Assembly: GCA_043815885.1 (NCBI GenBank)
Contig: JBDRIL010000005.1
Location: forward strand, 1 to 63,526
From: an archaeon
GTDB taxonomy: Archaea > Iainarchaeota > Iainarchaeia > Iainarchaeales > 1-14-0-10-31-34
Length of the DNA stretch: 63,526 nt
Direction: 5' to 3'
In this document: positions 5,621 to 63,526 of the stretch, in pieces
Layout: every line of letters starts with the position of its first letter
Numbering within the stretch: position 1 is the first letter of the stretch
Notes under the pieces: model-generated
The model's database searches: none
What the model was told of the DNA's origin: nothing
The model's input: the letters and a program-made list of their open reading frames with translations, nothing else
Position numbers and translations under genes: made by a program

Positions 5621-7362
5621 TCTTTTTCCCCCTTTTCTTTTCTTATTTCCTCCAGTAATTCTTTTTCGTCTTTTTTCAATACATCTGTTTCCTCTAATTT
5701 TTTGCAGTGAGCAGCCGAAACAAAGGTGGTTAATTCATCTTTTTCGTTTATGTTTCTTCCCACTACCCCCCCTTCGATTGAAACCGCTACTTCTTCTCCT
5801 TTCTTGGCTTCATTTATTGTCTTTCCTTCATGCTGTATTACCGCTACCTTTCCAATAGTCTTTCCTTTTTTCATTAACTTGACTCCTTGCATCAATCTTC
5901 CTTCCTCGATTTTTACTCCCACTATTGCTGGCTTGCTGTTCCTGAAAATACAGTTAGGCATAATCCTTATCCTTGCAGGAAATGTTACCCCTGCTAATGC
6001 TTTTTCTTTCTCTCTCTGCTTTGCTTCCTGAATCCATTCATTGTATTCTTCAATTAATTTGTAGACTACTTTTCCTTCAAATATCTTTACCTCTCTTTTT
6101 TTTGCTTCTTCCAGTGCTTCAGGATTAATATTCGTGTTAAATGCAATTATAACGCTTTTAATTGGATCCTTTTCTTTCAGGCAGGCTACTTCTATTATAT
6201 CCTTTCTTGTTATTTCTCCAACACTTGCTCTCCTTACCATTATTCCATCTTTTTCAAGCAGCTTTATGATTGCTTCAAGTGAACCCAATGCATCGGTCTT
6301 CAGTATTGGCCCCACATTATCTGATTTAATTTCAATATTATTTATTTCCTTCTCTATTTCCTCTCTTTCGTTTCCAGTCTCTATTGCCCTGAGCGGGGAT
6401 CCAGCCAATGCATTCTCCAGGTTTGGTGCAGCAATCTTTATTCCTGCAGCAGCATGCACTTCATTTACTGAATCAAATTTTTCCTGGGGGCTTCTGATTT
6501 CATCAAGCGGTTTCGGCAACAATAAAGCTCTTATCTTTGTTTCAATTGCTCCATGTTTTCCTCCCACCACTATTTCCTGCCCTTTCTTTATTGTTCCATC
6601 ATAAAGAATTACATCAATTGTTTTTCCTAAACCTTTTTCATCCTTTACCTCTAAAATTGTTCCCTTTGCAGGACCGCTTACCTCCATACTCAATCTCTTC
6701 TCCAAGTACTTCTGGCTTAAGCCAGCCAAAAACATCAATACCTCTGGAACACCTTCCCCTGACTTATTGCATACCGGAATAATCGGAATCTCTTTGGTTA
6801 AGTCCTTCACTCTATCAAATCTCTCTGCATTGAATTCTTTTTTATGCAGTTGTCCTACAAGTTCATACAGTTTTTTATCTAATTTCTCTATTGCTTCCTT
6901 TGTCTGATTTCCAAGATTTTCTGAGAAGGTTCCTTCTTTTGTATTCCATTCAACCAATTTATCTATCTTTGTTGCTGCAACAATGAACGGAACCTTGAAT
7001 GCCTTCAGGATCTCTATTCCCTCTATTGTCTGCTTTTCCAATCCCTTCTGTACATCCACAACCAATACAGCCAAGTCAGCTATACTTCCGCCTCTCCTCC
7101 TTAAATTAGTGAATGCCTCATGCCCAGGAGTATCAATGAATAGAAGTCCAGGAATCTCTAAACTGAATTTATATTTATTCAATAACTCTCCAGCCAATTC
7201 CTTTATTACTTCAGTGGGAACCTCTGTTGCTCCGATATGCTGCGTAATAGCTCCTGCTTCCTCGCTTACAATTGTTGTTCCTCTTATCTTGTCAAGGAAT
7301 GAAGTCTTTCCACTATCCACGTGCCCTAAAACAGTGATTATTGGTTTCCTTATCATTCTCAA
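5617..7362 (-). CDS. infB: Translation initiation factor aIF5B (IF2 homolog)
   Basis: 581 aa. RKPIITVLGHVDSGKTSFLDKIRGT, DTPGHEAF, ATKIDK. Confidence 0.9.
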   Translation of the reverse strand: MRMIRKPIITVLGHVDSGKTSFLDKIRGTTIVSEEAGAITQHIGATEVPTEVIKELAGELLNKYKFSLEIPGLLFIDTPGHEAFTNLRRRGGSIADLAVLVVDVQKGLEKQTIEGIEILKAFKVPFIVAATKIDKLVEWNTKEGTFSENLGNQTKEAIEKLDKKLYELVGQLHKKEFNAERFDRVKDLTKEIPIIPVCNKSGEGVPEVLMFLAGLSQKYLEKRLSMEVSGPAKGTILEVKDEKGLGKTIDVILYDGTIKKGQEIVVGGKHGAIETKIRALLLPKPLDEIRSPQEKFDSVNEVHAAAGIKIAAPNLENALAGSPLRAIETGNEREEIEKEINNIEIKSDNVGPILKTDALGSLEAIIKLLEKDGIMVRRASVGEITRKDIIEVACLKEKDPIKSVIIAFNTNINPEALEEAKKREVKIFEGKVVYKLIEEYNEWIQEAKQREKEKALAGVTFPARIRIMPNCIFRNSKPAIVGVKIEEGRLMQGVKLMKKGKTIGKVAVIQHEGKTINEAKKGEEVAVSIEGGVVGRNINEKDELTTFVSAAHCKKLEETDVLKKDEKELLEEIRKEKGEKE

Positions 7363-15009: not shown

Positions 15010-15735
15010 CTATCTCTTTGACTTTTGTTTTTTCTTTCTTGCCTTCTTTCCTAAAGGCTTTTTTGGTTCAGTTCTTCTTGGATCATCAATCAAAAGCATT
15101 TTATCATACTTAATCATTTTCTGCTTCAGTTTTTCGTCATTAAAGTATTCTATTATGGATTTTGCTATTGCGCTTCTTGCGGCCACTGCCTGGCCCATAA
15201 AACCGCCCCCATTTGTACTGACACTTATATTCACTTCTTTCATTCTTTCCCCTGTCATTATCAGGGGCTCCCTGATAAATTCATTCAAGTACTTTGGCTG
15301 GATTAATTCAATACTTCTTTTATTTATCCTTATTTTCCCGTTTCCTGTTTTAATGGTCGCTCTTGCAACGGCTTCCTTCTTTTTTGCCTTAACATGAATT
15401 CCATACTTCTTACTCTTCTTTACCTTTTTTTTCTTCTTTTTTATTTTCCCTGTTTCCTCTGCCTCTTCTGTTTTCTCTTTCTCGTCTATTTTTGTTCCTT
15501 CGCTTTTCTCATCCGTCTTTTCTTCTTTTTCTTCAGTTTTTTCGTTTCCTGTTTCCTCTTTCTTTTCTTCAGTTTCTTTTTCCTTCTTTTCAATCTTTTT
15601 CTCTTTTATTCCTTTCTTTTCTTCAGTCTCTTTTTCTTCTTTTGCACCACTGTTTTCTCCCTGCTTCTCTTTTCTAAAAGCGGTGTTTTCCTCTTTTTTT
15701 ACTGTTTTCTTTTTTTCCTTCATTTTATTCACCAT
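15010..15735 (-). CDS. rps9: Ribosomal protein uS9 with ~110-aa K/E-rich N-terminal extension
   Basis: 241 aa. The core starts near [28 protein letters not shown] and ends in ...[12 protein letters not shown]. The extension carries ENTAFRK...SGAK and shared repeat modules. Confidence 0.85.
15437..15481 (-). repeat. Second shared module ([12 protein letters not shown]) in the uS9 extension, near-identical to the uS4 tail at 17831-17874
   Basis: tttttt-attttccctgtttccTctgCctcttctgttttctctttc here versus ttttt-attttccctgtttccCctgTctcttctgttttctctttc in uS4. Aligned by eye. Confidence 0.7.
15641..15692 (-). repeat. Degenerate copy of the in-frame palindromic-core repeat ([17 protein letters not shown]) in the uS9 extension
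   Basis: The plus strand reads tttgcaccactgttttctccctgcttctcttttctaaaagcggtgttttcc. It shares the AAAAGCGGTGTTTTC and GCaCCACTG(c)TTTT halves with the other copies. Confidence 0.7.
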
Positions 15736-16148
15736 TTTGCCCCAAGTGCTTTGCTTATGTCTCCCAAAAAAACGAAATTACTTTCTTCCCTCTTTCTTGC
15801 GATTTCAATTGAAGAAACATTTCCAGTTATTTCCTTTGGCTTTCCAATAAATACCTTTAATTTCTTTAAAGCATCTATTCCTCTTTTTCTCCTGTACGGA
15901 AGCATTCCTCTTACTGCTCTCTTTACTATTGCGTCCGGTTTCCTTGGATATTTAGGGCCAAAATGGGGGTTTCCCTTTCTTTGGAGATCCAGTCTTTTCT
16001 TGAATTTCTTTGAAACAAATTCCTTGCTTCCTATAATGACTGTTTTTTCTGCATTGATTACTTCAACCTTTTCTCCTTTCAATAATTTTTTAGCGATCTC
16101 TGAGGCCATTCTTCCCAGAATCAATTCCTCTGCATTCACTACAACCAT
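15729..16148 (-). CDS. rpl13: Ribosomal protein uL13
   Basis: 139 aa. VVNAEELILGRMASEIAKKLLKGEKVEVINAEK...RAVRGMLP. Confidence 0.9.
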   Translation of the reverse strand: MVVVNAEELILGRMASEIAKKLLKGEKVEVINAEKTVIIGSKEFVSKKFKKRLDLQRKGNPHFGPKYPRKPDAIVKRAVRGMLPYRRKRGIDALKKLKVFIGKPKEITGNVSSIEIARKREESNFVFLGDISKALGAKW

Positions 16149-16162
16149 TTTTTTCTCCTTCC

Positions 16163-16531
16163 CTACTTTAAAATAACTATTTCTTTTGCCTTTGTCTTCT
16201 TTTCAAGCAGTTCATTTAAGCTCATTGCATTCCCTTTTTTTTCTTTTATCTTCTTTAGAGCCTTTTCAGAGAATTCCAATGCAGCAACCTCTGCCTTTGA
16301 TTCAATACTGCCGGTACTTAATACTTTTCCTGGAACCAAAAGAATTTTTCCCTTGAATTTTTTACTCATTTTATCAATCTTCCACAGATTCACTGAAACC
16401 CTTGTCCTTCTTGATTTTTCTATTCTTTTCGCTACGTCTATCCACAACTTTTCCTTTCTCTTCTTTCCTTCTTTTTTCATCTTTGAAATAAATTTTTTTG
16501 TTTCCAGTTTTGTTGGGCCGGTTGCTTTCAT
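16163..16531 (-). CDS. rpl18e: Ribosomal protein eL18
   Basis: 122 aa. The L18e pattern is ...RTRVSVNLWKI...ILLVPGKVLSTG. Lies in the conserved position next to uL13. Confidence 0.8.
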   Translation of the reverse strand: MKATGPTKLETKKFISKMKKEGKKRKEKLWIDVAKRIEKSRRTRVSVNLWKIDKMSKKFKGKILLVPGKVLSTGSIESKAEVAALEFSEKALKKIKEKKGNAMSLNELLEKKTKAKEIVILK

Positions 16532-16582
16532 TGTTTTTCACCTTTTTTTTAGTGCCTTAATGCAAACCAATTGTATGTGGTT

Positions 16583-16666
16583 TGCGGGAGGGAGGATTTG
16601 AACCCCCGAAGGCACTAAGCCACAGGATCTTAAGTCCTGCCCCTTTGACCGCTTGGGTACCCCCGC
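16583..16666 (-). tRNA. tRNA-Leu (anticodon UAA), class II with long variable arm, no encoded CCA
   Basis: Minus-strand sequence: GCGGGGG-TA-CCCAAGCGGTCAAAGGG-G-CAGGA-CTTAAGA-TCCTG-TGGCTTAGTGCCTTC-GGGGG-TTCAAAT-CCTCC-CTCCCGC-A. The cloverleaf was folded by hand. The acceptor and T stems each have one G-U pair. Confidence 0.8.
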
Positions 16667-16676
16667 ATCAAAACAC

Positions 16677-17825: not shown

Positions 17826-18503
17826 TCACTTTTTTATTTTCCCTGTTTCCCCTGTCTCTTCTGTTTTCTCTTTCTTTTCCTCTTCTTCATCCTCTTTTTC
17901 TTCTTTTGCATCACTGCTTTTTTCAGAAGCTTCAACTTTTGCGCCACTGCTTTTTCTAAAAGCGGTGTTTTCTTCTTTTTTTATTGTCTTCTTTTCTTTT
18001 AGTTCCAGTGGTTTTAATGGAATCTCTTTTCCGTAAAAGCCAATGTCTTTTTCCTCGTCAACCTTTACTATATATGACGGAACACTTACCTTTTTTCCAC
18101 TTATTGCAATGTGTCCGTGGGTAATGAATTGCCTTGCTTGTTTAACTGTATTAGCCAAACCTTTTCTCCATACAATTGTTTGAAGCCTTCTCTCTAATAA
18201 TTCTTCTGTCTTCAGACTCAGCACGTCATCAAGTGTTGCAGTCTTTTTAGCTAAACCTGTTCTCCTCAGACTTTCAAGCAATTCCTTTTCTTTCTTTGCT
18301 TTTTCTTCCATTGAGAGTGCAAGCAGCTTTCTTGCATTCTGTCTCTTTTTCCTGAGAAAGGTTTCACTTAACCATATCTCTTTCTTGTTCTTTAATCCAT
18401 AGGTTTCCGTTAACTTTTTTTCCGCTTCTATCCTGATTTTGTCCCATGGCTTTTTTGGTGTAAAAAACTTCTTTCCAATTTTTTTTGGGTCGCCCATTTT
18501 CAT
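17826..18503 (-). CDS. rps4: Ribosomal protein uS4 with ~60-aa K/E-rich C-terminal extension
   Basis: 225 aa. The S4 domain is RRLQTIVWRKGLANTVKQARQFITHGHIAISGKKV. The tail is [29 protein letters not shown]... Confidence 0.9.
   Translation of the reverse strand: MKMGDPKKIGKKFFTPKKPWDKIRIEAEKKLTETYGLKNKKEIWLSETFLRKKRQNARKLLALSMEEKAKKEKELLESLRRTGLAKKTATLDDVLSLKTEELLERRLQTIVWRKGLANTVKQARQFITHGHIAISGKKVSVPSYIVKVDEEKDIGFYGKEIPLKPLELKEKKTIKKEENTAFRKSSGAKVEASEKSSDAKEEKEDEEEEKKEKTEETGETGKIKK
17904..17973 (-). repeat. In-frame palindromic-core repeat, duplicated-core copy (ENTAFRKSSGAKVEASEKSSDAK) in the uS4 tail
   Basis: The plus strand reads ttttgcatcactgcttttttcagaagcttcaacttttgcgccactgctttttctaaaagcggtgttttc. 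Confidence 0.8.
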
Positions 18504-18511
18504 CTATCCTC

Positions 18512-19036
18512 TTACTTCTTTTTTTCTTCCTTTTTTGTCTCGATAGTTTTTTTGCCTGCACTCCTTGCGTCTTTCTTGATTACTCCTATGACTCCGCCTT
18601 TTCCTCTGTGTGTTGATTTAGTCTTTTGGCCTCTCACAGTCAAACCCCATCCAAGTCTTAGTCCTCGGTAGCTCTTTATTTTGCTCAGTCTTTGTAAGTC
18701 CTTTCTTTTGTTAAAGTCTAGTTCTCCCATTATGTAATGTTTATCCTTTCCGCTTTCAAATTCCTTTCTTGTATTCAAGCACCAGGAAGGGATTTCATGC
18801 TTTTCTGGGTTTAATACAATGTCCTCAAGCTTTTTATCCATTTCTTCCGGTATTTCTCCCAGCCTTGCGTTTTCATCTGTTTTTGTTAGATTGAAGAAGG
18901 TTTTAGCCATTATATTTGCTGTCCTGTGGTTTATTCCTTTTAAAGCCATTAATGCTCTCCCCACACCCAGTTTTCCATCTAAGTCCTTTCCTGCGATCCT
19001 AACTATAAGCCTTTTTTCCGTCTCCATTTCAATCAC
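18512..19036 (-). CDS. rps13: Ribosomal protein uS13
   Basis: 174 aa. RIAGKDLDGKLGVGRALMALKGINHRTA...YRGLRLGWGLTVRGQKTKS. Confidence 0.9.
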   Translation of the reverse strand: MIEMETEKRLIVRIAGKDLDGKLGVGRALMALKGINHRTANIMAKTFFNLTKTDENARLGEIPEEMDKKLEDIVLNPEKHEIPSWCLNTRKEFESGKDKHYIMGELDFNKRKDLQRLSKIKSYRGLRLGWGLTVRGQKTKSTHRGKGGVIGVIKKDARSAGKKTIETKKEEKKK

Positions 19037-24594: not shown

Positions 24595-25122
24595 TTAATT
24601 CAATACCCTTAACCCCATTTCTTTTGCTTTTCTGACCATTATTTTTTTATTCTTTTTTCCCACTTTTCCGCCAATCCTTACAACAAAGCCTTTCTTCACT
24701 TCCGCCAATTCCTTTACATTCTGTACCCTTACTTCATTCATTCCGCTTGGATGAACAAACCTTATCTTCTTTCTCGTCCTATACCCGCTTTTTGGAATGG
24801 CTCCGTCCTCTTTTTTTCTCTTTATATCTATCCCTCTTGGTTTTCTCCACTTATTCCATTTCTCTTTCTTCTTCCTTCTAAGCCACTTCTTTCCAAACCT
24901 TCCCCTAAAGGAAGGCTTCTTCTTCTCTTTAATCATTTCCTGAGCCAAAACAGCTTCCTTGTTTTTTTCAATTCTCTTTGCCTTTGGTTTCTTTTTCTCC
25001 TTCTTTTCTTCTTTTGCGCCACTGCTTTTTTCAATGGCTTCAGCTTTTGCGCCACTGCTTTTTTTAAAAGCGGTGTTTTCCTTTACAGTAGTTTTCTTCT
25101 CTGTTTTGTCCTTTTCCTTCAT
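24595..25122 (-). CDS. rpl32e: Ribosomal protein eL32 with ~60-aa N-terminal extension
   Basis: 175 aa. The core is WRKPRGIDIKRKK...PKSGYRTRKKIRFVHPSG. The extension is VKENTAFKKSSGAKAEAIEKSSGAKEEKK. Confidence 0.85.
   Translation of the reverse strand: MKEKDKTEKKTTVKENTAFKKSSGAKAEAIEKSSGAKEEKKEKKKPKAKRIEKNKEAVLAQEMIKEKKKPSFRGRFGKKWLRRKKKEKWNKWRKPRGIDIKRKKEDGAIPKSGYRTRKKIRFVHPSGMNEVRVQNVKELAEVKKGFVVRIGGKVGKKNKKIMVRKAKEMGLRVLN
25012..25080 (-). repeat. In-frame palindromic-core repeat, duplicated-core copy, in the eL32 N-terminal extension
   Basis: The plus strand reads cttttgcgccactgcttttttcaatggcttcagcttttgcgccactgctttttttaaaagcggtgttttc. Its reverse complement matches 63325-63392 with only ~3 mismatches, aligned by eye. 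Confidence 0.85.
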
Positions 25123-27447: not shown

Positions 27448-27989
27448 TAACTTTCCTCCTTCTTTTCTTTCCCCGTTTTTTCTTCCGTCTTATTTTCTGG
27501 TTTCTTTTTTTCTTCAGCCTTTTTCTCTTCATTTTCTTCTTTTGCGCCACTGCTTTTTTCAAAAGCGGTGTTTTCTCTTTTTTCTTCACTCTTCTCTTTG
27601 CTTTTTCCTTTCCCCTCTGCTTCTTCTTTCGCTTTCAGCTTGATTTTTTTTCTCTTAAACCTTTTATCGTCCTTCAACTCCAAATCAGTTATCATGAGAT
27701 TTGATGCCTTGAATGGAACAAGTATCTCTGTTCCGTCAGCCTTTTTTCGGACCATTTTTTCAATGAAAATAACTCCCTTCTTATAATCGACCTTTGTCAC
27801 TTTCCCGCTCTTTTTCTTTTTCTTTCCCCTCATTATCTTTACAGTGTCACCGCTCCTTACAGCCAGACTTCTCTGATTCAATTCTTTCTTCAAACCCTTG
27901 CTTAAGTGAGCTTTAAGCAAACCTCTTTTTTCATGCAGTGAACTTTCATACAGCTTTTTTCTCTGCTTTGATGGTTTTTTGCTCTTCAT
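27447..27989 (-). CDS. rpl24: Ribosomal protein uL24 with ~60-aa K/E-rich C-terminal extension
   Basis: 180 aa. The KOW domain is VRSGDTVKIMRGKKKKKSGKVTKVD. The tail is ...RENTAFEKSSGAKEENEEKKAEEKKKPENKTEEK. Confidence 0.85.
   Translation of the reverse strand: MKSKKPSKQRKKLYESSLHEKRGLLKAHLSKGLKKELNQRSLAVRSGDTVKIMRGKKKKKSGKVTKVDYKKGVIFIEKMVRKKADGTEILVPFKASNLMITDLELKDDKRFKRKKIKLKAKEEAEGKGKSKEKSEEKRENTAFEKSSGAKEENEEKKAEEKKKPENKTEEKTGKEKKEES
27539..27576 (-). repeat. In-frame palindromic-core repeat (single core) in the uL24 tail
   Basis: The plus strand reads cttttgcgccactgcttttttcaaaagcggtgttttctc. Confidence 0.8.
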
Positions 27990-28985: not shown

Positions 28986-29277
28986 TTAATTCCTCTTTGT
29001 ATCCCTGCATTAAGAGTATTTCCTTAATGTTTTTCTTGTGGTTTCCTTGGAGTTCTATTTCGTTTCCTTTTACCGTGCCTCCACAGGCAAGCTTTTTCTT
29101 CAATATCTTTTCTAATTCCTTTGCTCTTTCATGGCTCTCCAATCCGCTGATGCTTGTCACCAGTTTTCCAAATCTTCTTCTTCCCACTCTCACCTTTATC
29201 TGTTCTGCTTCCTTTGCCATTTCTCCGCAACTACACAGCTCTTTTGGAAGCCCGCAAACCGGACACACCTCATTCAT
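28975..29277 (-). CDS. sui1: Translation initiation factor aIF1 (SUI1)
   Basis: 100 aa. N-terminal CPVCG...CSC, then IKVRVGRRRFGKLVTSISGL...KLACGGTVKGNEIELQGNH. Confidence 0.85.
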   Translation of the reverse strand: MNEVCPVCGLPKELCSCGEMAKEAEQIKVRVGRRRFGKLVTSISGLESHERAKELEKILKKKLACGGTVKGNEIELQGNHKKNIKEILLMQGYKEELIDV

Positions 29278-29504
29278 TTTTCTTCTTTCACCTCTCCTTT
29301 AGTTTTTTCTTTTTCATTAATAATGGTTAATATTCTTGCAATCGTTTTCCTCATTTTCTTTATCTTTCCAGGATTCTCTGATCTAGTGCCTGAAGAGATC
29401 AATGCCTTTTCTTTGGCTAGATCTGCCTTTATCCCAATAATCTTTTCACTTAACTCTTCCGCAGCCATCCCCCTCATGTCTTTCACGTTCAACTTTACGG
29501 CCAT
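29274..29504 (-). CDS. rpl29: Ribosomal protein uL29
   Basis: 76 aa. MRGMAAEELSEKIIGIKADLAKEKA...IKKMRKTIARILT. Confidence 0.8.
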   Translation of the reverse strand: MAVKLNVKDMRGMAAEELSEKIIGIKADLAKEKALISSGTRSENPGKIKKMRKTIARILTIINEKEKTKGEVKEEK

Positions 29505-29510
29505 TATTCA

Positions 29511-30485
29511 TCACTTTTTTTCTTTTCCTTTCTCCTTAGCCTTTTCTGCTATCTCTTTCTTTTCCTTTTTTTCTTCCGTCTTATTTTCTGGTTTCTCTTT
29601 TTCCCTTTTTTCTTCAGCCTTTTCTTCTTTTTTGCTACTGCTTTTCTCAGGGACAGTTTTTTCTTCTTTTGCGTCACCGCTTTTTCCAACAGCGGTGTCT
29701 TCCTTTTTTTCGTTTGTCTTTTCTTTTTTCTTTTCCTTCTCATTTTTTTCTTTCTTATCCTCAGTTTTTTCTTCTTTAGCTTCTTCCTTTTTCTCTTTCT
29801 TTTCTTCTTTTCCTTCTGCTTTTTCCTCGATTTCTTCTTTTCCTTTCTCCTGCGTTTCTTCTGCTTCTTCCACTTTTTCTTCCTTTTTCAGGAATTCCTC
29901 TATTTTAAACTTATCCGGAAAGAGTGTTCCTGGCTTAACTATCTTTACTTTTATTCCTATGATTCCAAACTTCGCGTTTGCAGGGGAAATCCCGTAATCA
30001 ACCAATCTTGCTTGATCGCCCACCTTCTTCATATATCCTTCAGCTATCCTTTGCTTTCTTTTTCTGCTTCCCTTTCCTCCCAGTGCTCCTGAAAGCAATA
30101 GTTCTGTTCCTACTGCTCCTGCCCTCATGATGTCTTTGATTGCTCTGTATGCAACACTCCTCCAGCTGAATCCTCTCTCAATCAATTTTGATATCTTGTC
30201 AGCCATTGCTTGTGCGTCAAGTTCAGGCACTTCTATTTCCTTTATCTCTATTTGAGGGTTATCTATCTTGAATCTTTCTTCAATTTCTTTTGTAAGGCTC
30301 CTGATGTTTGTTCCTCCCTTTCCTATCGCTAAACCAGGCCTGGTTACATTAACTATTATTCTTGTCACAAGTGGGGTCTTTACTGTTTCAAGTTTTGTAA
30401 ATCCTGCCTTCCCTAACTCTTTCCTCAAATACGTCTCTAGTTCTGCTTTCTTTATTCCCTGAGTGATAAAGTTTCTTTCAATCAA
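29511..30485 (-). CDS. rps3: Ribosomal protein uS3 with ~128-aa K/E-rich C-terminal extension
   Basis: 324 aa. The KH domain is VNVTRPGLAIGKGGTNIRSL, with LSGALGGKGSRKRK. The extension starts at ~aa 197 (nt 29511-29897) and includes EDTAVGKSGDAKEEK and KPENKTEEK. Confidence 0.9.
   Translation of the reverse strand: MIERNFITQGIKKAELETYLRKELGKAGFTKLETVKTPLVTRIIVNVTRPGLAIGKGGTNIRSLTKEIEERFKIDNPQIEIKEIEVPELDAQAMADKISKLIERGFSWRSVAYRAIKDIMRAGAVGTELLLSGALGGKGSRKRKQRIAEGYMKKVGDQARLVDYGISPANAKFGIIGIKVKIVKPGTLFPDKFKIEEFLKKEEKVEEAEETQEKGKEEIEEKAEGKEEKKEKKEEAKEEKTEDKKEKNEKEKKKEKTNEKKEDTAVGKSGDAKEEKTVPEKSSSKKEEKAEEKREKEKPENKTEEKKEKKEIAEKAKEKGKEKK
29667..29700 (-). repeat. Diverged in-frame palindromic-core repeat (EDTAVGKSGDAK) in the uS3 tail
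   Basis: The plus strand reads cttttgcgtcaccgctttttccaacagcggtgtcttcc. The inverted repeat CACCGCT/AGCGGTG is perfect. Confidence 0.7.
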
Positions 30486-55383: not shown

Positions 55384-58374
55384 CTATAATTTCTTTAATT
55401 TGACGCCCATTTCATCCAGAATCTTTTCTATCGGCGCTTCCTCTGCATCCACTGTCACTTCAGCCAATAATGATAAGTTTTTCACTAACCCGCAGTTTCC
55501 TGTAAGGAAACCATTTGCAAAAAAATTGTGGTGTTCCTGAATTGTTGTAATATCCCTCACATTACTGCATTCAACTTCTTTTATTGATTCAATTGTCTCC
55601 CAAACTAAGCCATTATCTGATATTACATTTTCCCTTATCCATTCATTAAATCTAGGAAAATCTTTTTCAGACACTCTAACATTGTTCTTTCCTTTTTTTG
55701 CATTCTTTTTAATCCAATTATTTAAATCATGTTCTCTTATCTCGTAATCCAAGGAATTCATTATTTCTGCTCTTGTTTTTCCGCTTGAGTACAACTTTAA
55801 TGCTGTTTTTTGAAGCATTGATCTTTTTTTAACTAAGGTCTCTTTGCTTAATAAGTATTCAAATGCAAGCCTTGCTAAACTTTTCCTTTGATTGCAGTAA
55901 CTAAAACCAATAACTCCATACAGTTTAATTAGATTGTCTAGCTTGGATGAAATCAATCCTTTAATTTTTCTTGTTTCTGTCCCATTTTTTCTCTTAATTC
56001 CGTCAACTATTCTTATCGAAGACATCCCAATTTCAAATCCATTAAGCAATTCTTTAACCTCTTCTGCGAAGTTTACTGCATTGCCTTCTAGCTCTTTACG
56101 TTTATTTAGTGAAAAAGAGGGTTGCAGGAAAATTTTATCATTTCTTTTGTCCGTTTTTGGGGTTGTCATTTCGCTTCCAAAATAAGCCGAAAGAAATTCT
56201 TTTTGAATTATTTTTCTTTCTTTTTTTATCCACTCAGGGATCCTTGTTTCTTTTAAAGCTTTATCTCCCGTAGGAGCGCCAAGAACTTTCAACAAAACCC
56301 ACAGAGGTTTTGAATAGCAATCTTTCCTTGTTGTTATTCCTTTTATTATTCTACCGTCGTCTAATACTGATATTTTTTCTCTTGAATCGATTTTTGAGAC
56401 ATTAAATCCAAGTAGCCTGATGTCTTTTTCTATTTCTTCTAAGTCCCCTTCTGTTCCACTCAAAACAACGGAAACATTTGACTTGAATTTTTTCATGCTT
56501 AGAGTGAGACTGCCGTCTCCAAATATGTGGCCAACCAATCTTGTTAATGCAAGGATTCTCTCATCACTGCTTTTTAAGGGTAACAGTTTTCTCTTTTTCA
56601 GTTCTTCAATAATGTAATTAAAATTGCTTTTTTCTGGGCAGTTTTTTCTTATTTTTTCTTCATCCACCAGAATAGTTTCTTTTGCCTCTTGGAAAAGAAT
56701 CGGTTTTATTGGCAGCACGGCAACCCTGTCCCCTGTTTTTAATTTCTCTAAATTAATTTTTCCTTTTTCTGAATAAAATGGATGGTCAATTGTTGCAATT
56801 AATTTTCTGTTTGTTTCCTTTGTTGTTATTTCAACCGTCTTTTTGTTCGGTTTTAGTTTTAAGTATCTGCCAACATTACTTATTGCTTCTTTTTTGTTTT
56901 TCTCCCAGTCTATTGAGAGTATTTTTTTATTGGTCCATTTACCCTCATAATCTTTTATGCTTATTCCAGTGTAGTCATCCAATAACATTTCTGTTTCAGG
57001 TGCAACACATTGAGGGCCATCAGGGGTTTCCACTGCATCAAGCCTTCCCCAATGAGTTCCATGCACGTCCCTTGCCTCATACAATTCCCTGTTTTTATCC
57101 AATGGACTCTTTACCTTTCTCAAATCAGTTAATGGTGCAAGGTAATTCACTCTCTCCATGAATTTACTTACTCCAGTAGCTCTTCCAATCCAGTTCCCTG
57201 TACTCATTGCAAACCTGATTCTTTCACTCACTGCCCCAGGCCTTACAACAGTACTGATATTCAGTTTCCTTCTCCTTGTAATGGTTCTGTCTATCTGAAA
57301 CTTCAAGTCCTTTATAAAGTACTTGAATGAATACCTGAATAAGTGCTCCATTAGTTTTCCACTCAATTCCAGTCTCTTATTACTGTAATGATCTTTATCG
57401 TCTTCATTCCTCAATCCATGAGCCAATTCAGTTGCCTTTGTAGCCATCATGCTCAAGTAATAAGCTTTAGCTAATCTATCCTTTGCACTCTGCCCAATAT
57501 GAGGCAACAAGAAAGCATCAATCACTTCTTGGGCCCTTCTCAGCCTGTACTCTATTACCTGTCCTGGCGCCACATACTTTCCAATCCTGTCCAGTGCATC
57601 TTCCTGTTTTTTTATATCAAGCATCTCCAGATTCAGTAAAACGTCATTCATTACCTCTTTTTCTTCCTCTGGAAATGCTCCAATCAATTCCTTTTCTGAA
57701 ACCAATCCAAGTGCCTTCAATAAAACAAACAATCTCAATTTCCTTGGAGAAGAAGGAAATGTTACAAACAATACTCCATCCACATTCCTTGTAATCCTCA
57801 CTCTTCCCTTGAATGCCCCTTTAGTGGAAATAACCTCAGCAATCACTCTCTCCTGAGGCTGTTTCGAAACCAGCACCCTGTCAGAAGCCAGTACTTCCTG
57901 AGTCATTAAAGCTTTCTCTGAACCATTAATAATAAAGTATCCCCCAAAGTCTTCTGGATCCTCTCCCATTTCAATTAATTCTTCATCCGATTTTCCTGCC
58001 AGCCAGCATCTATTGGATTTAAGCATTATAGGCATTTCTCCAATATATGTCTTCTTTATGTCCTGTTCAACGTCTCTCCTCAATAACTTCATTGTAAGAT
58101 AGAGCGGCCCAGAATAAGTTCTGTTCCTTGTTCTTGATTCCATTGGATAAAAATTAGTTCTGGGGCTTCCATCAGCCTCAACAATTTTTGGCTTGTGCAC
58201 CTCAATATTCTCCACTTCAATTCTTACTTCTTCTATCTTTGGGATTATCAGCTTGTTTTCTTCAACTATTTCATCCAGTTTCTGGTCAATGAATTGATTG
58301 AAGGAATCAATTTCCTGTTGTGCAATATTCTTGTCCCTAAAATACAGATTAATTAAAGGCCATCCATTAATCAT
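55384..58374 (-). CDS. rpoB2: RNA polymerase subunit Rpo2N (B'') interrupted by a 505-aa intein (455-aa N-extein + 36-aa C-extein)
   Basis: 996 aa. Extein sequence ...HWGRLDAVETPDGPQ | intein | CGLVKNLSLLAEV... restores the invariant Rpb2/beta motif. Confidence 0.9.
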   Translation of the reverse strand: MINGWPLINLYFRDKNIAQQEIDSFNQFIDQKLDEIVEENKLIIPKIEEVRIEVENIEVHKPKIVEADGSPRTNFYPMESRTRNRTYSGPLYLTMKLLRRDVEQDIKKTYIGEMPIMLKSNRCWLAGKSDEELIEMGEDPEDFGGYFIINGSEKALMTQEVLASDRVLVSKQPQERVIAEVISTKGAFKGRVRITRNVDGVLFVTFPSSPRKLRLFVLLKALGLVSEKELIGAFPEEEKEVMNDVLLNLEMLDIKKQEDALDRIGKYVAPGQVIEYRLRRAQEVIDAFLLPHIGQSAKDRLAKAYYLSMMATKATELAHGLRNEDDKDHYSNKRLELSGKLMEHLFRYSFKYFIKDLKFQIDRTITRRRKLNISTVVRPGAVSERIRFAMSTGNWIGRATGVSKFMERVNYLAPLTDLRKVKSPLDKNRELYEARDVHGTHWGRLDAVETPDGPQCVAPETEMLLDDYTGISIKDYEGKWTNKKILSIDWEKNKKEAISNVGRYLKLKPNKKTVEITTKETNRKLIATIDHPFYSEKGKINLEKLKTGDRVAVLPIKPILFQEAKETILVDEEKIRKNCPEKSNFNYIIEELKKRKLLPLKSSDERILALTRLVGHIFGDGSLTLSMKKFKSNVSVVLSGTEGDLEEIEKDIRLLGFNVSKIDSREKISVLDDGRIIKGITTRKDCYSKPLWVLLKVLGAPTGDKALKETRIPEWIKKERKIIQKEFLSAYFGSEMTTPKTDKRNDKIFLQPSFSLNKRKELEGNAVNFAEEVKELLNGFEIGMSSIRIVDGIKRKNGTETRKIKGLISSKLDNLIKLYGVIGFSYCNQRKSLARLAFEYLLSKETLVKKRSMLQKTALKLYSSGKTRAEIMNSLDYEIREHDLNNWIKKNAKKGKNNVRVSEKDFPRFNEWIRENVISDNGLVWETIESIKEVECSNVRDITTIQEHHNFFANGFLTGNCGLVKNLSLLAEVTVDAEEAPIEKILDEMGVKLKKL
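55495..57009 (-). mobile_element. Intein with LAGLIDADG homing-endonuclease domain in rpoB''
   Basis: Cys1 (TGT at 57009-57007) begins CVAPETEMLL. Block B is ATIDHPF (TxxH). The LAGLIDADG motifs are LVGHIFGDGSL (~56509-56541) and FLSAYFGSEMT. The C-terminus is HNFFANGFLTGN, followed by a +1 Cys (TGC at 55494-55492). 1515 nt = 505 codons, in frame. Confidence 0.85.
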
Positions 58375-62239: not shown

Positions 62240-63016
62240 TTACAGCACAAAAGCCATCACTAGATAGATGGCTGCAAAGATAAAGCAAAACAAGGAAAAA
62301 TTGATTCTTCTGGCTGCCCTTATAAATAAATCCATTGAAATCAATCCAATCACTGCAGCAATTATTATTGAAATAATTAAATTCAATTCAAATTCTATTG
62401 TTTCGACCAACCCAAATCCAATCTCTGCAATTAATACTGATGGAATGGATAGCAGGAAACTCAACCTGAATGCCTTTTCCGGAGTAAATCCTTCAAAAAG
62501 CATTACTGAAGTTGTTACTCCGCTTCTGCTTATCCCTGGCAGTACACTGAACCCCTGCCCCAACCCTAAAAACAATGCATTCCTTTTATTCATTTCTCCT
62601 TCTCTCCCGCTTTTTGCCTTCAGCTGAATCACTCCAGTTACAATCAGGAATAATGCTATTGCAATCATTAATGCAAAACCGCTCTCTAAAATATTCGTTA
62701 AAAGCAGATAGGAGGGAATTGCCGTAATCGCACTTGCTATTACTGCTATCCCTAGAAAATTCCTCAGCTTCTTTTCCTTTAATTCAATTAATTCCTTCAA
62801 TTCTTTCCTGAAATAAATTACTGCCGCAATAAGCGTTCCAATATGCAGGAATATAGAGTAACTCAGTGCCTTTCCCATTGGAATATTAAACAATGCCAAT
62901 GCTGCTATCGTTACCTGTCCCTGGCTGCTTATTGGAAGCCATTCAGTTATTCCTTGAATTAAGCCTAAAATTATTGCCTGAATTAAGTCCATTGGAATAT
63001 TAAAAGCAAAAAACAA
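62240..63016 (-). CDS. uppP: Undecaprenyl-diphosphate phosphatase (UppP/BacA family)
   Basis: 258 aa. GLIQGITEWLPISSQGQ...GLGQGFSVLPGISRSG. Confidence 0.85.
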   Translation of the reverse strand: MFFAFNIPMDLIQAIILGLIQGITEWLPISSQGQVTIAALALFNIPMGKALSYSIFLHIGTLIAAVIYFRKELKELIELKEKKLRNFLGIAVIASAITAIPSYLLLTNILESGFALMIAIALFLIVTGVIQLKAKSGREGEMNKRNALFLGLGQGFSVLPGISRSGVTTSVMLFEGFTPEKAFRLSFLLSIPSVLIAEIGFGLVETIEFELNLIISIIIAAVIGLISMDLFIRAARRINFSLFCFIFAAIYLVMAFVL

Positions 63017-63084
63017 TTAAAAAACAGTTTCTATTCAAAAAATAAAACTTAATAATAAGTTCGTCCTATTTTTATTGGATTCAA

Positions 63085-63526
63085 ATGAAACACGCTTTAG
63101 TATTGATTTCCCTGCTGTTTTTTTCTTTGAATGCATTTGCTGAGACAGATTTTGCCTACAAAGGACTTCCAGGATTCAATAACCTGACTTCTTTCATTAC
63201 TCTCCAGCTTGCAGGGAACTGGATCATTCAAATAATTTTAGTAATAGCTGCAATAATTGCAGTATTATTCTTTTTATTCAAGAAAGGGATAATCCGAAAA
63301 ATCGGAGAGGAAAGAGTGATGGGAGACACCGCTTTTGGAAAAAGCAGTGGCGCAAAAGCTGAAGCCATTGAAAAAAGCAGTGGCGCAAAAGAAGAAGAAA
63401 TTGAAGAAGAACTCCCTGAACTATCTGAAGAATCAGAGGAAGAACTCCCGGAAGAAGTTCCTGAAGAACCCGCAGAGAAAGAACCGGAAATAGAAAAGCC
63501 TTTTAAGGAAAAAGCTCCAATAGATA
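63085..63526 (+). CDS. Hypothetical membrane protein (signal/TM + TM, acidic tail), 3'-truncated; carries the in-frame repeat
   Basis: Not in the track (no stop). From the ATG at 63085: MKHALVLISLLFFSLNAFAETDFAYKGLPGF...IILVIAAIIAVLFFLF...MGDTAFGKSSGAKAEAIEKSSGAKEEEIEEELPE... Confidence 0.5.
   Translation, partial: MKHALVLISLLFFSLNAFAETDFAYKGLPGFNNLTSFITLQLAGNWIIQIILVIAAIIAVLFFLFKKGIIRKIGEERVMGDTAFGKSSGAKAEAIEKSSGAKEEEIEEELPELSEESEEELPEEVPEEPAEKEPEIEKPFKEKAPID
63325..63392 (+). repeat. In-frame palindromic-core repeat (duplicated core) in a non-ribosomal membrane protein
   Basis: gacaccgcttttggaaaaagcagtggcgcaaaagctgaagccattgaaaaaagcagtggcgcaaaag. It is nearly identical to the reverse complement of 25012-25080. 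Confidence 0.85.

Follow-up and report, generated by a model that had tools for sequence, protein, structure and literature searches.

A hairpin-forming repeat translated in ribosomal and membrane proteins of an archaeon

The 63,526-nt stretch of archaeal DNA analyzed here (the window) ends in a partial gene for a membrane protein, and a segment within the tail of that gene is nearly identical, in reverse complement, to part of the gene for ribosomal protein eL32. This raises the question of what the shared segment is, and how two unrelated genes on opposite strands came to carry it. An earlier note on this DNA had counted, by eye, about three mismatches over a 68-nt segment. Local alignment of the two copies bears this out, with 69 of 71 nucleotides identical; the two mismatches are adjacent bases (GG versus AA) and both lie within the loop of a hairpin. 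The pair is also recovered in a repeat search of the window, as an 81-nt match at 93% identity. The block that had been described as common to the two loci is exact over 52 nt, with no third occurrence within the window and no match in 100 dinucleotide-preserving shuffles. The roughly eight differences that had been ascribed to the uS4 copy are consistent with the 86% identity across 86 nt found for it in the repeat search. Ordinary K/E-rich tails, compared with each other within the window, are just 60-80% identical, and the 97% identity of the membrane/eL32 pair is therefore far above the compositional background. The concern that the identity might be no higher than expected for coding sequence of this composition can thus be set aside.

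The repeat and its copies in the window

The window is a housekeeping region that encodes ribosomal proteins, RNA polymerase, EF-2, EF-1alpha, aIF2 and RtcB. Those homologues of its eL32 for which a taxon is given are assigned to 'Candidatus Diapherotrites' or just to 'archaeon', and the organism is accordingly one of the DPANN archaea. Six of its genes contain the repeat: those for uS9, uS4, eL32, uL24 and uS3, and the membrane-protein gene (Table 1). The host genes were identified through Pfam, the membrane protein having no significant Pfam family. All six copies are intragenic, in the sense orientation and in frame, reading xTAFxKSSGAK; in the membrane protein, the copy encodes DTAFGKSSGAKAEAIEKSSGAK and is located in the tail that follows the transmembrane (TM) helix. 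The 19-nt core AAAAGCAGTGGCGCAAAAG has ten matches in the window at three or fewer mismatches, versus 0.05 expected.

Table 1. Features of the window related to the repeat
Feature	Positions	Strand	Description
Host membrane gene	63085..63526	+	Truncated by the contig end
Membrane-gene copy	63326..63396	+	Full unit at about 63322-63358, then its 3' half once more (33-nt period) up to 63391
Membrane-copy hairpin	63327-63349	+	CACCGCTTTT-GGA-AAAAGCAGTG
eL32 copy	25006..25076	-	N-terminal K/E-rich extension; unit 25044-25080, second half-unit 25011-25034
uS4 copy	17903..17972	-	C-terminal tail; unit 17936-17972, diverged half-unit 17903-17930 (KSSDAK)
Second shared block, end of uS4 tail	17829..17875	-	96% identical (47 nt) to 15436-15482 in the uS9 extension
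uL24 copy	27539..27575	-	C-terminal tail; single unit
uS3 copy, decayed	29627..29702	-	C-terminal tail; unit 29666-29701 with 4 substitutions (EDTAVGKSGDAK), remnant half-unit 29627-29645
uS9 copy	15639..15689	-	N-terminal extension; insertion of about 15 nt splits the two arms

The dispersed repeat has the form CACCGCTTTT-NNA-AAAAGCAGTG-GCGCAAAAG, and an ungapped comparison of all copies, together with a profile search, defines the unit as GAAAACACCGCTTTT-NN-AAAAAGCAGTGGCGCAAAAG, with a core of 31-37 nt. Its 10-nt arms, CACCGCTTTT and AAAAGCAGTG, form an imperfect hairpin with a 3-nt loop (NNA) and one C.A position, and the GCGCAAAAG tail follows directly 3' of the hairpin. Free variation is confined to two bases of the loop (AG, AA, GA or GG), and these are exactly the two bases at which the membrane-gene and eL32 copies differ. 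The 3' half can recur, together with a 14-nt linker, head to tail with a period of 33 nt, giving 2.2 tandem copies in the membrane gene (TRF, period 33, 63335-63405) and 3.6 in a copy outside the window (L034). The element ends in ...GAAAA|CACCGC on one side and GGCGCAAAAG on the other.

The two strands differ in predicted folding. The RNA of the T-rich strand is the more stable, at -11.1 kcal/mol (z about -3) compared with -7.7 kcal/mol (z -0.5 to -1.5) for the A-rich, mRNA-sense strand, because the C.A position becomes a G.U pair on the T-rich strand. The T-rich strand thus has the form of a terminator-like stem-loop, with 10 base pairs including the one G.U pair, followed by a U-run. Rfam contains no match to the element, tRNAs alone being scored, and neither the element nor the tRNA-linked unit described below has a match in phage or plasmid collections or in IMG/VR. 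A search for transposases, integrases and other mobility genes found none among the approximately 50 window proteins or beside non-coding copies elsewhere (L001, L003, L031 and L032), and no target-site duplication is visible at any copy junction examined, the flanks being low-complexity purine runs.

Copies of the repeat also mark places where assemblies end. The eL32 copy is present again in two further assemblies (L033 and L045), and the membrane-gene copy is known from the present contig only. Contig JAHISD010000130.1 of the metagenome-assembled genome (MAG) GCA_018818325.1 matches the window eL32 gene and starts 25 nt before the eL32 copy. In that MAG, eL32 is called as a protein of 113 aa, from Met63 (window 24595-25122; L045 1-511), since the contig starts at the repeat, inside the N-terminal extension. 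Four contigs (L001, L029, L033 and L045) begin or end at a copy. The presence of repeat copies in ribosomal-protein genes means that MAGs of this lineage break there. In the window itself, the upstream ATG from which the eL32 and uS9 extensions would be translated is a putative start.

Two long open reading frames on the forward strand, 15394-16176 (260 aa) and 29131-29997 (288 aa), overlap in antisense the K/E-rich tails of uS9/uL13 and uS3, and were rejected as genes; they are by-products of stop-free low-complexity sequence. Elsewhere in the window, the gene at 55384-58374, for the N-terminal part of RNA polymerase subunit B (Rpb2 domains 1-3), contains an intein with Intein_splicing and HINT matches.

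The membrane-gene locus and the mosaic tails

The membrane protein is small; its N-terminus resembles a signal peptide, it has a single TM helix, and its tail is acidic and rich in E and P. A protein search identifies two orthologues, P0002 (156 aa, encoded by L038) and P0003 (161 aa, encoded by L037), at about 81% protein identity. On either side of the repeat, the window gene is collinear with both orthologous genes, in the 60 nt nearest the promoter, in the TM region and in the acidic tail, and the flanking DNA of the orthologues differs by about 10-15%. Mis-assembly, which the earlier note had named as a possible source of the match, does not account for it, since the gene aligns in order with these independent orthologues both before and after the repeat. 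Upstream of the membrane gene, just the promoter region of about 60 nt is conserved between the window and L037/L038; the neighboring gene on that side encodes undecaprenyl-diphosphatase (BacA) in the window (62240-63084), a DUF2207 protein in L037 (492-2572) and probably a DUF2207 protein in L038 as well (3-1747).

Comparison with related genomes that lack the insert had been proposed, and the two orthologues provide it, as neither has a full copy at the membrane-gene site. L037 reads GGCACCGCTTTTGGAGAAGAAAAAACAGAGG, which preserves the left arm CACCGCTTTTGGA and a GG loop, the right arm being lost or decayed, and L038 reads TCTCCCTCTTTCGGAGAAGAAAAAATAGAGG, with a left arm more decayed than that of L037. 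The window gene, with two pristine units, exceeds both by a net 39 nt. Its copy differs from the eL32 copy in the loop only, and the GG of this loop is that of L037; the right-hand 52 nt equal the eL32 copy, and the sequence of unit and linker also matches the copy in P0004, a second TM protein. The claim of a recent transfer or conversion is therefore supported, in the form of gene conversion or re-insertion, since the orthologues keep only a decayed left-arm remnant and the window copy is longer. The simplest reading of these sequences is that an old copy in the membrane gene would have been overwritten from the loop rightwards, with another AEAIE-type copy (that of eL32 or P0004) as the probable template. 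The change at this locus cannot be rooted, being either a gain in the window or a loss in both orthologues. A parallel case is provided by P0004, whose relatives end in ...LNKPKK(D/A)E without the tail, or bear a single EKSSGAK.

The tails of the ribosomal proteins also share sequence beyond the repeat. The second block common to the uS4 tail and the uS9 extension (Table 1) reads KEKTEE..GKIKK, and the same tail and extension have in common the unit with its upstream flank. Likewise, the uL24 and uS3 tails both contain KPENKTEEK 3' of their copies (about 27470-27500 and 29575-29605). The occurrence of common blocks in different tails shows that segments are exchanged between tails, which is the behavior that conversion requires.

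Copies in other archaeal DNA

Pattern scans of genome and metagenome collections found the 31-34 nt core in further contexts, and the family is present in several independent metagenomes and MAGs. Retrieval was by exact match only, and the apparent invariance of the outside copies is therefore inflated, in part an ascertainment effect. Coding copies outside the window, all in the same frame, occur in three contigs (L030, L034 and L036). In L034, the copy forms the tail of the 108-aa TM protein P0004, which is also found in MAG GCA_018818325.1; in L036, two copies lie in a K/E-rich tail that resembles the tail of the stalk protein and has no Pfam hit; and in L030, the copy lies in the interior of a degenerate amidotransferase domain of an asparagine (Asn)-synthase-like enzyme. 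The L030 segment (1988-2120) comprises two full units and two half-units inside that domain, with no K/E-rich flanks. The Asn-synthase-like protein starts MSSIIG, with Ser rather than Cys at position 2.

Untranslated copies are found in two settings. In L031 and L032, they lie between convergent genes, 30-40 nt past a stop codon and surrounded by in-frame stops, and both are flagged as a stem-loop followed by a T-run, that is, as predicted terminator-like structures. In L003, L028 and L029, they lie 3' of tRNA-Gln and tRNA-Arg genes, on the T-rich strand, and are identical to the uL24 copy save one flanking base. These tRNA-linked copies are part of 93-nt tandem units that include the last 20-22 nt of the tRNA, starting exactly from the T-loop. 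The earlier claim that the element extends beyond ribosomal proteins thus holds, for the tails of TM proteins, the Asn-synthase-like enzyme, the L036 tail and non-coding archaeal DNA. The name given in the note, 'ribosomal-tail repeat', is too narrow, since the element is a repeat of nucleic acid that forms a hairpin and also has terminator-like copies outside translated sequence.

The 93-nt units (L028 870-1111, L029 2417-2595 and L003 1-200) lie 3' of tRNA-Arg(TCT) and tRNA-Gln(TTG), and each consists, in order, of the tRNA 3' end (20-22 nt), a trailer of 42 nt that forms two small hairpins, and the element. In L028, the intact tRNA-Arg is followed by two 3' fragments, one of tRNA-Gln and the other a variant of the tRNA-Arg 3' end. 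The arrays look like att-site scars or the products of recombination between elements at different tRNA loci. A reading of the element plus tRNA 3' end as a tRNA-like or split tRNA was rejected: ARAGORN and Rfam detect the intact tRNAs alone, and there is no 5' acceptor partner. A CRISPR array was rejected as well, because the 62-nt 'spacers' of the tRNA-linked arrays are mutually identical; the tandem units are contiguous, with a period of 33 nt.

Some of the organisms involved are distant from that of the window. The organism of L003 has an RtcB that is 47% identical to that of the window and an element core that is 100% identical. The L031 copy, also 100% identical in its core, shares a 74.6-kb contig with an eL32 gene whose product is 60% identical to that of the window, and the uS3, uL24, eL32, uS4 and uS9 of the L031 organism contain no copy. 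Exact identity over 31-34 nt at such distances implies horizontal spread or strong constraint at the nucleotide level. Most genome-contig matches to a degenerate pattern were chance matches in bacteria (L002, L007, L009, L013, L014, L016, L017, L019, L020, L022 and L023) and were rejected. Among the degenerate-pattern matches are a repeated coding context in Bacteroidota (...CACCGCTTTTTGAAAAAGCTGTGG...) and, in Pasteurellaceae (Avibacterium), hairpins 3' of genes that resemble uptake-signal terminators.

A sister family is found in an organism (L042) whose eL32 is 52% identical to that of the window. Its eL32 extension and uS4 tail contain AAACC(T/A)GCTTTTGAGAAAAGCC(A/G)GGTTGCCAAAAC, which reads KPAFEKS(Q/R)VAK; these copies differ very little from one another and are about 60% identical to the window unit. 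They have the same inner stem as the window unit, GCTTTT/AAAAGC, and a different outer stem that still pairs. Hairpins of the form Nx-CTTTT(T)-NNN-(A)AAAAG-Nx' are numerous in the ribosomal operon of this organism, which contains about 15 different ones, with 43 matches in a scan (each loop length counted) versus 2.4 in shuffles, and these are located in intergenic spacers, in the uL24 tail and in a tRNA-Leu gene. That gene, tRNA-Leu(TAA) (L042 18699-18914), has a 122-nt intron with four CTTTTT-NNN-AAAAAG hairpins, and three more lie 3' of the gene; the intron is 37 nt in L043 (about 18728-18850) and is absent from the window tRNA-Leu (16582-16667). In a sister genome (L046), the orthologous intergenic hairpin has a compensatory change from C-G to A-T, the eL32 copy has lost the hairpin, and the uS4 copy keeps the C.A position as in the window family. 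On this sequence comparison, the hairpin appears to be under constraint in non-coding DNA and to decay freely within coding sequence. The idea that stem mismatches are systematically C.A, as a sign of the transcribed orientation, was rejected: it is true of the window family, which represents one event, and fails among the independent L042 hairpins. L043 (contig Ga0315289_10000331) has an intergenic family of its own, ATTTCAAGC-NNN-GCTTGAAAT, at 854-876, 1005-1027, 6818-6838 and 18910-18955, which suggests that small palindromic repeats, each specific to a lineage, occur commonly in this clade.

Competing explanations and known systems

Is the conserved entity a peptide or a nucleic acid? Relative to the consensus, the variant copies have 22 nonsynonymous changes and 4 synonymous ones (15% synonymous), where neutral change would be expected to give 19-33%. 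R, K, E and G all occur at the loop codon, and it is precisely the inner stem GCTTTT/AAAAGC that encodes the conserved residues A-F..K-S. The motif is missing from orthologues of the membrane protein, of P0004 and of eL32. A search with P0004 against 1.84 billion representative proteins found no wider protein family with the unit, and a profile of the peptide motif found nothing at E<=10 in a set of 5.8 billion proteins, the motif being too short and composition-biased for HMMER. A short linear motif or protein repeat is expected to be conserved in amino acids above nucleotides and to occur in translated form only, and neither is the case here. Thus, judged by the decay pattern, the loop codon, the inner-stem residues, the untranslated copies and the absence of a wider protein family, the element is a nucleic-acid repeat and not a protein motif.

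The ten coding sites, located in five ribosomal proteins, two membrane proteins, the Asn-synthase-like enzyme and the L036 tail, nevertheless all use one frame. A second sense frame is open (K-T-P-L-L-x-K-A-V-A-Q-K), and the third contains a stop with all but one of the four loop variants. If insertion were random between the two open frames, the use of one frame at all ten sites would have a probability of about 0.001. We infer that in-phase recombination between GAA/AAA-periodic tails, which fits better than random insertion, accounts for the uniform frame, and a preference for the less hydrophobic frame possibly contributes as well.

Taken together, we favor, with a probability of roughly 60%, a REP/RPE-like, terminator-like hairpin repeat that is translated as a passenger in disordered segments and homogenized by gene conversion. 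In related archaea, the repeat resides in the terminator-like orientation, just 3' of protein and tRNA genes. In the present genome, it would have entered coding DNA in the opposite, A-rich orientation, which has no stop in two of the three frames and may be tolerated in disordered K/E-rich tails and loops, where it would be translated as xTAFxKSSGAK, a passenger peptide probably with no function of its own. The copies within the genome would be kept, or made, near-identical by gene conversion, a non-reciprocal recombination among copies and among entire tails, rather than by transposition, and the copy in the membrane gene would be the product of conversion acting on an older, half-decayed copy. 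Several observations count against this explanation. Mobility genes and target-site duplications were not found at the places examined above, and the uniform frame could instead reflect selection on the peptide. Repeats of 35-70 nt are short for homologous recombination, and the Asn-synthase-like copy has no K/E-rich flanks to guide conversion. Also, archaeal termination needs no hairpin, and the terminator function proposed here is a predicted one.

The coding copies, too, may be a nucleic-acid signal selected by the host, with identity kept by selection and the tail peptides as by-products. Candidates for such a signal include a terminator of antisense transcription in highly expressed genes, a hairpin bound by an RNA- or DNA-binding protein, and an uptake or recombination signal. 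The identity of the core across lineages with 47-60% protein identity is in line with this, as are the hairpins kept with different outer stems and one compensatory change in the sister family, and the over-representation of hairpins in the L042 ribosomal operon (43 versus 2.4 in shuffles). However, the copies in uS3, uS9, L037, L038 and the L046 eL32 gene are visibly decaying, close relatives manage without a copy at the same site, the independent L042 hairpins have no G.U-type mismatch asymmetry, and Rfam has no matching family. The uS4, eL32 and uL24 copies are the top terminator-like matches on the antisense strand, but this ranking weighs little since that strand is T-rich throughout, and all such matches are expected from its T-richness. 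On balance, we regard a host-selected signal as unlikely. A broader version is also unlikely: that the K/E-rich ribosomal tails of the clade are partly built of horizontally spreading translated hairpins, the core being a selected nucleic-acid signal (a terminator, antisense silencer, uptake signal or recombination signal) whose 31-34 nt would be exchanged across lineages down to 47% RtcB identity, and whose movement would be recorded by the partial-tRNA arrays. If instead xTAFxKSSGAK were a functional short linear motif of ribosomal and membrane tails, for example a docking or modification site, with nucleotide identity as a secondary effect, then the use of the same frame and sense orientation at ten of ten independent coding sites, with a second frame open, would be explained, and the recurrence of a looser motif, [TP]-A-F-x-K-S-x-x-A-K, in the L042 eL32 and uS4 tails would fit. 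Yet the same bases are also found untranslated with in-frame stops around them, changes fall on amino acids over synonymous sites (22 to 4) with x spanning R, K, E and G, the residues A-F..K-S coincide with the inner stem, and orthologues without the motif and the lack of a wider family in the 1.84 billion proteins all speak against it, so that a functional peptide is very unlikely. Chance likeness of low-complexity sequence encoding K, E, A and S, or an artefact of assembly that joined or collapsed two loci, could be suspected because the repeat is just 130 nt from the contig end and family copies break other assemblies (L001, L029, L033 and L045). This explanation is essentially refuted by the shuffles (no match), the 60-80% background identity of tails, the collinearity of both flanks of the membrane-gene copy with two orthologous genes, and the family members in several independent metagenomes and MAGs.

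The repeat presents a concrete, datable case in which hairpin DNA of non-coding origin has been incorporated into essential proteins of an archaeon with a reduced genome, and one in which short dispersed repeats are seen homogenized between unrelated genes. It also cautions that a peptide common to several proteins should not be taken for a functional motif. In addition, an identity of 34 nt across deeply diverged DPANN lineages points to an unrecognized signal or route of horizontal spread.

How does the element compare with known repeats? Miniature inverted-repeat elements (MITEs) are 70-300 bp long, with terminal inverted repeats and a target-site duplication; the present element, in contrast, is too short, has no terminal repeats of that kind, and shows no duplication at its junctions. 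The uptake sequences of Pasteurellaceae and Neisseria (USS/DUS) are short, over-represented sequences that often occur as inverted pairs forming terminators, are found in genes in preferred frames, are common to related species, and arise in situ by point mutation, not by insertion. The element is similar in being short, terminator-like, tolerated in genes and common to related species. However, its copies are net insertions relative to orthologues, its density is low (six loci in 63.5 kb), and no uptake system is linked to it.

Terminator-like mobile repeats are known in bacteria, such as the SPRITE of S. pneumoniae (PMC10969869). Like SPRITE and intrinsic terminators, the element in its T-rich orientation comprises a 10-bp stem-loop and a T-run, 30-40 nt past stop codons and after tRNA genes. 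The in-gene copies are opposite in orientation and unable to terminate the host transcript: terminator structures are predicted for L031, L032 and the antisense strands of the uS4, eL32 and uL24 copies, and for none of the copies on the host sense strand.

REP elements and BIMEs are imperfect palindromes of 20-40 nt, described from bacterial genomes, that are located mostly 3' of genes between convergent or unidirectional open reading frames, are occasionally translated, and have a stem with a G.T pair on the transcribed strand (PMC3733652, PMC2817692). The element shares with them a stem-loop from an imperfect palindrome of 20-40 nt, the G.T-type pair, the downstream placement and the occasional translation. 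It differs in having at its ends no GTAG or CGTC tetranucleotide, the tag conserved at one end of REP elements, and no RAYT (Y1/HUH) transposase, the gene for which is flanked by REPs where the two are associated, is found among the approximately 50 window proteins or the neighbors of the L001, L003, L031 and L032 copies. Also, REP elements are mostly extragenic and number more than 100 per genome, whereas all six window loci are intragenic; the extragenic copies of the element are in other organisms.

Rickettsia palindromic elements (RPEs) have been described as 'selfish DNA in protein-coding genes': they are palindromic, inserted in frame in unrelated genes, translated, and also found in non-coding DNA (PMC10969869). 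They are bacterial, about 100-150 bp long, and fall into defined Rickettsia families, RPE-1 to RPE-10 (PMC10969869). The present element is likewise a palindromic, dispersed repeat that is in frame, translated into an extra peptide compatible with protein function, and present in non-coding copies. It is shorter (31-37 nt plus optional 33-nt reiterations) and archaeal (DPANN, Diapherotrites-like), a separation made by length and host, and it resides mainly in disordered K/E-rich tails, with untranslated copies that are terminator-like. The bacterial REP elements and the Rickettsia palindromic elements are the closest analogues of the element, which belongs to neither family.
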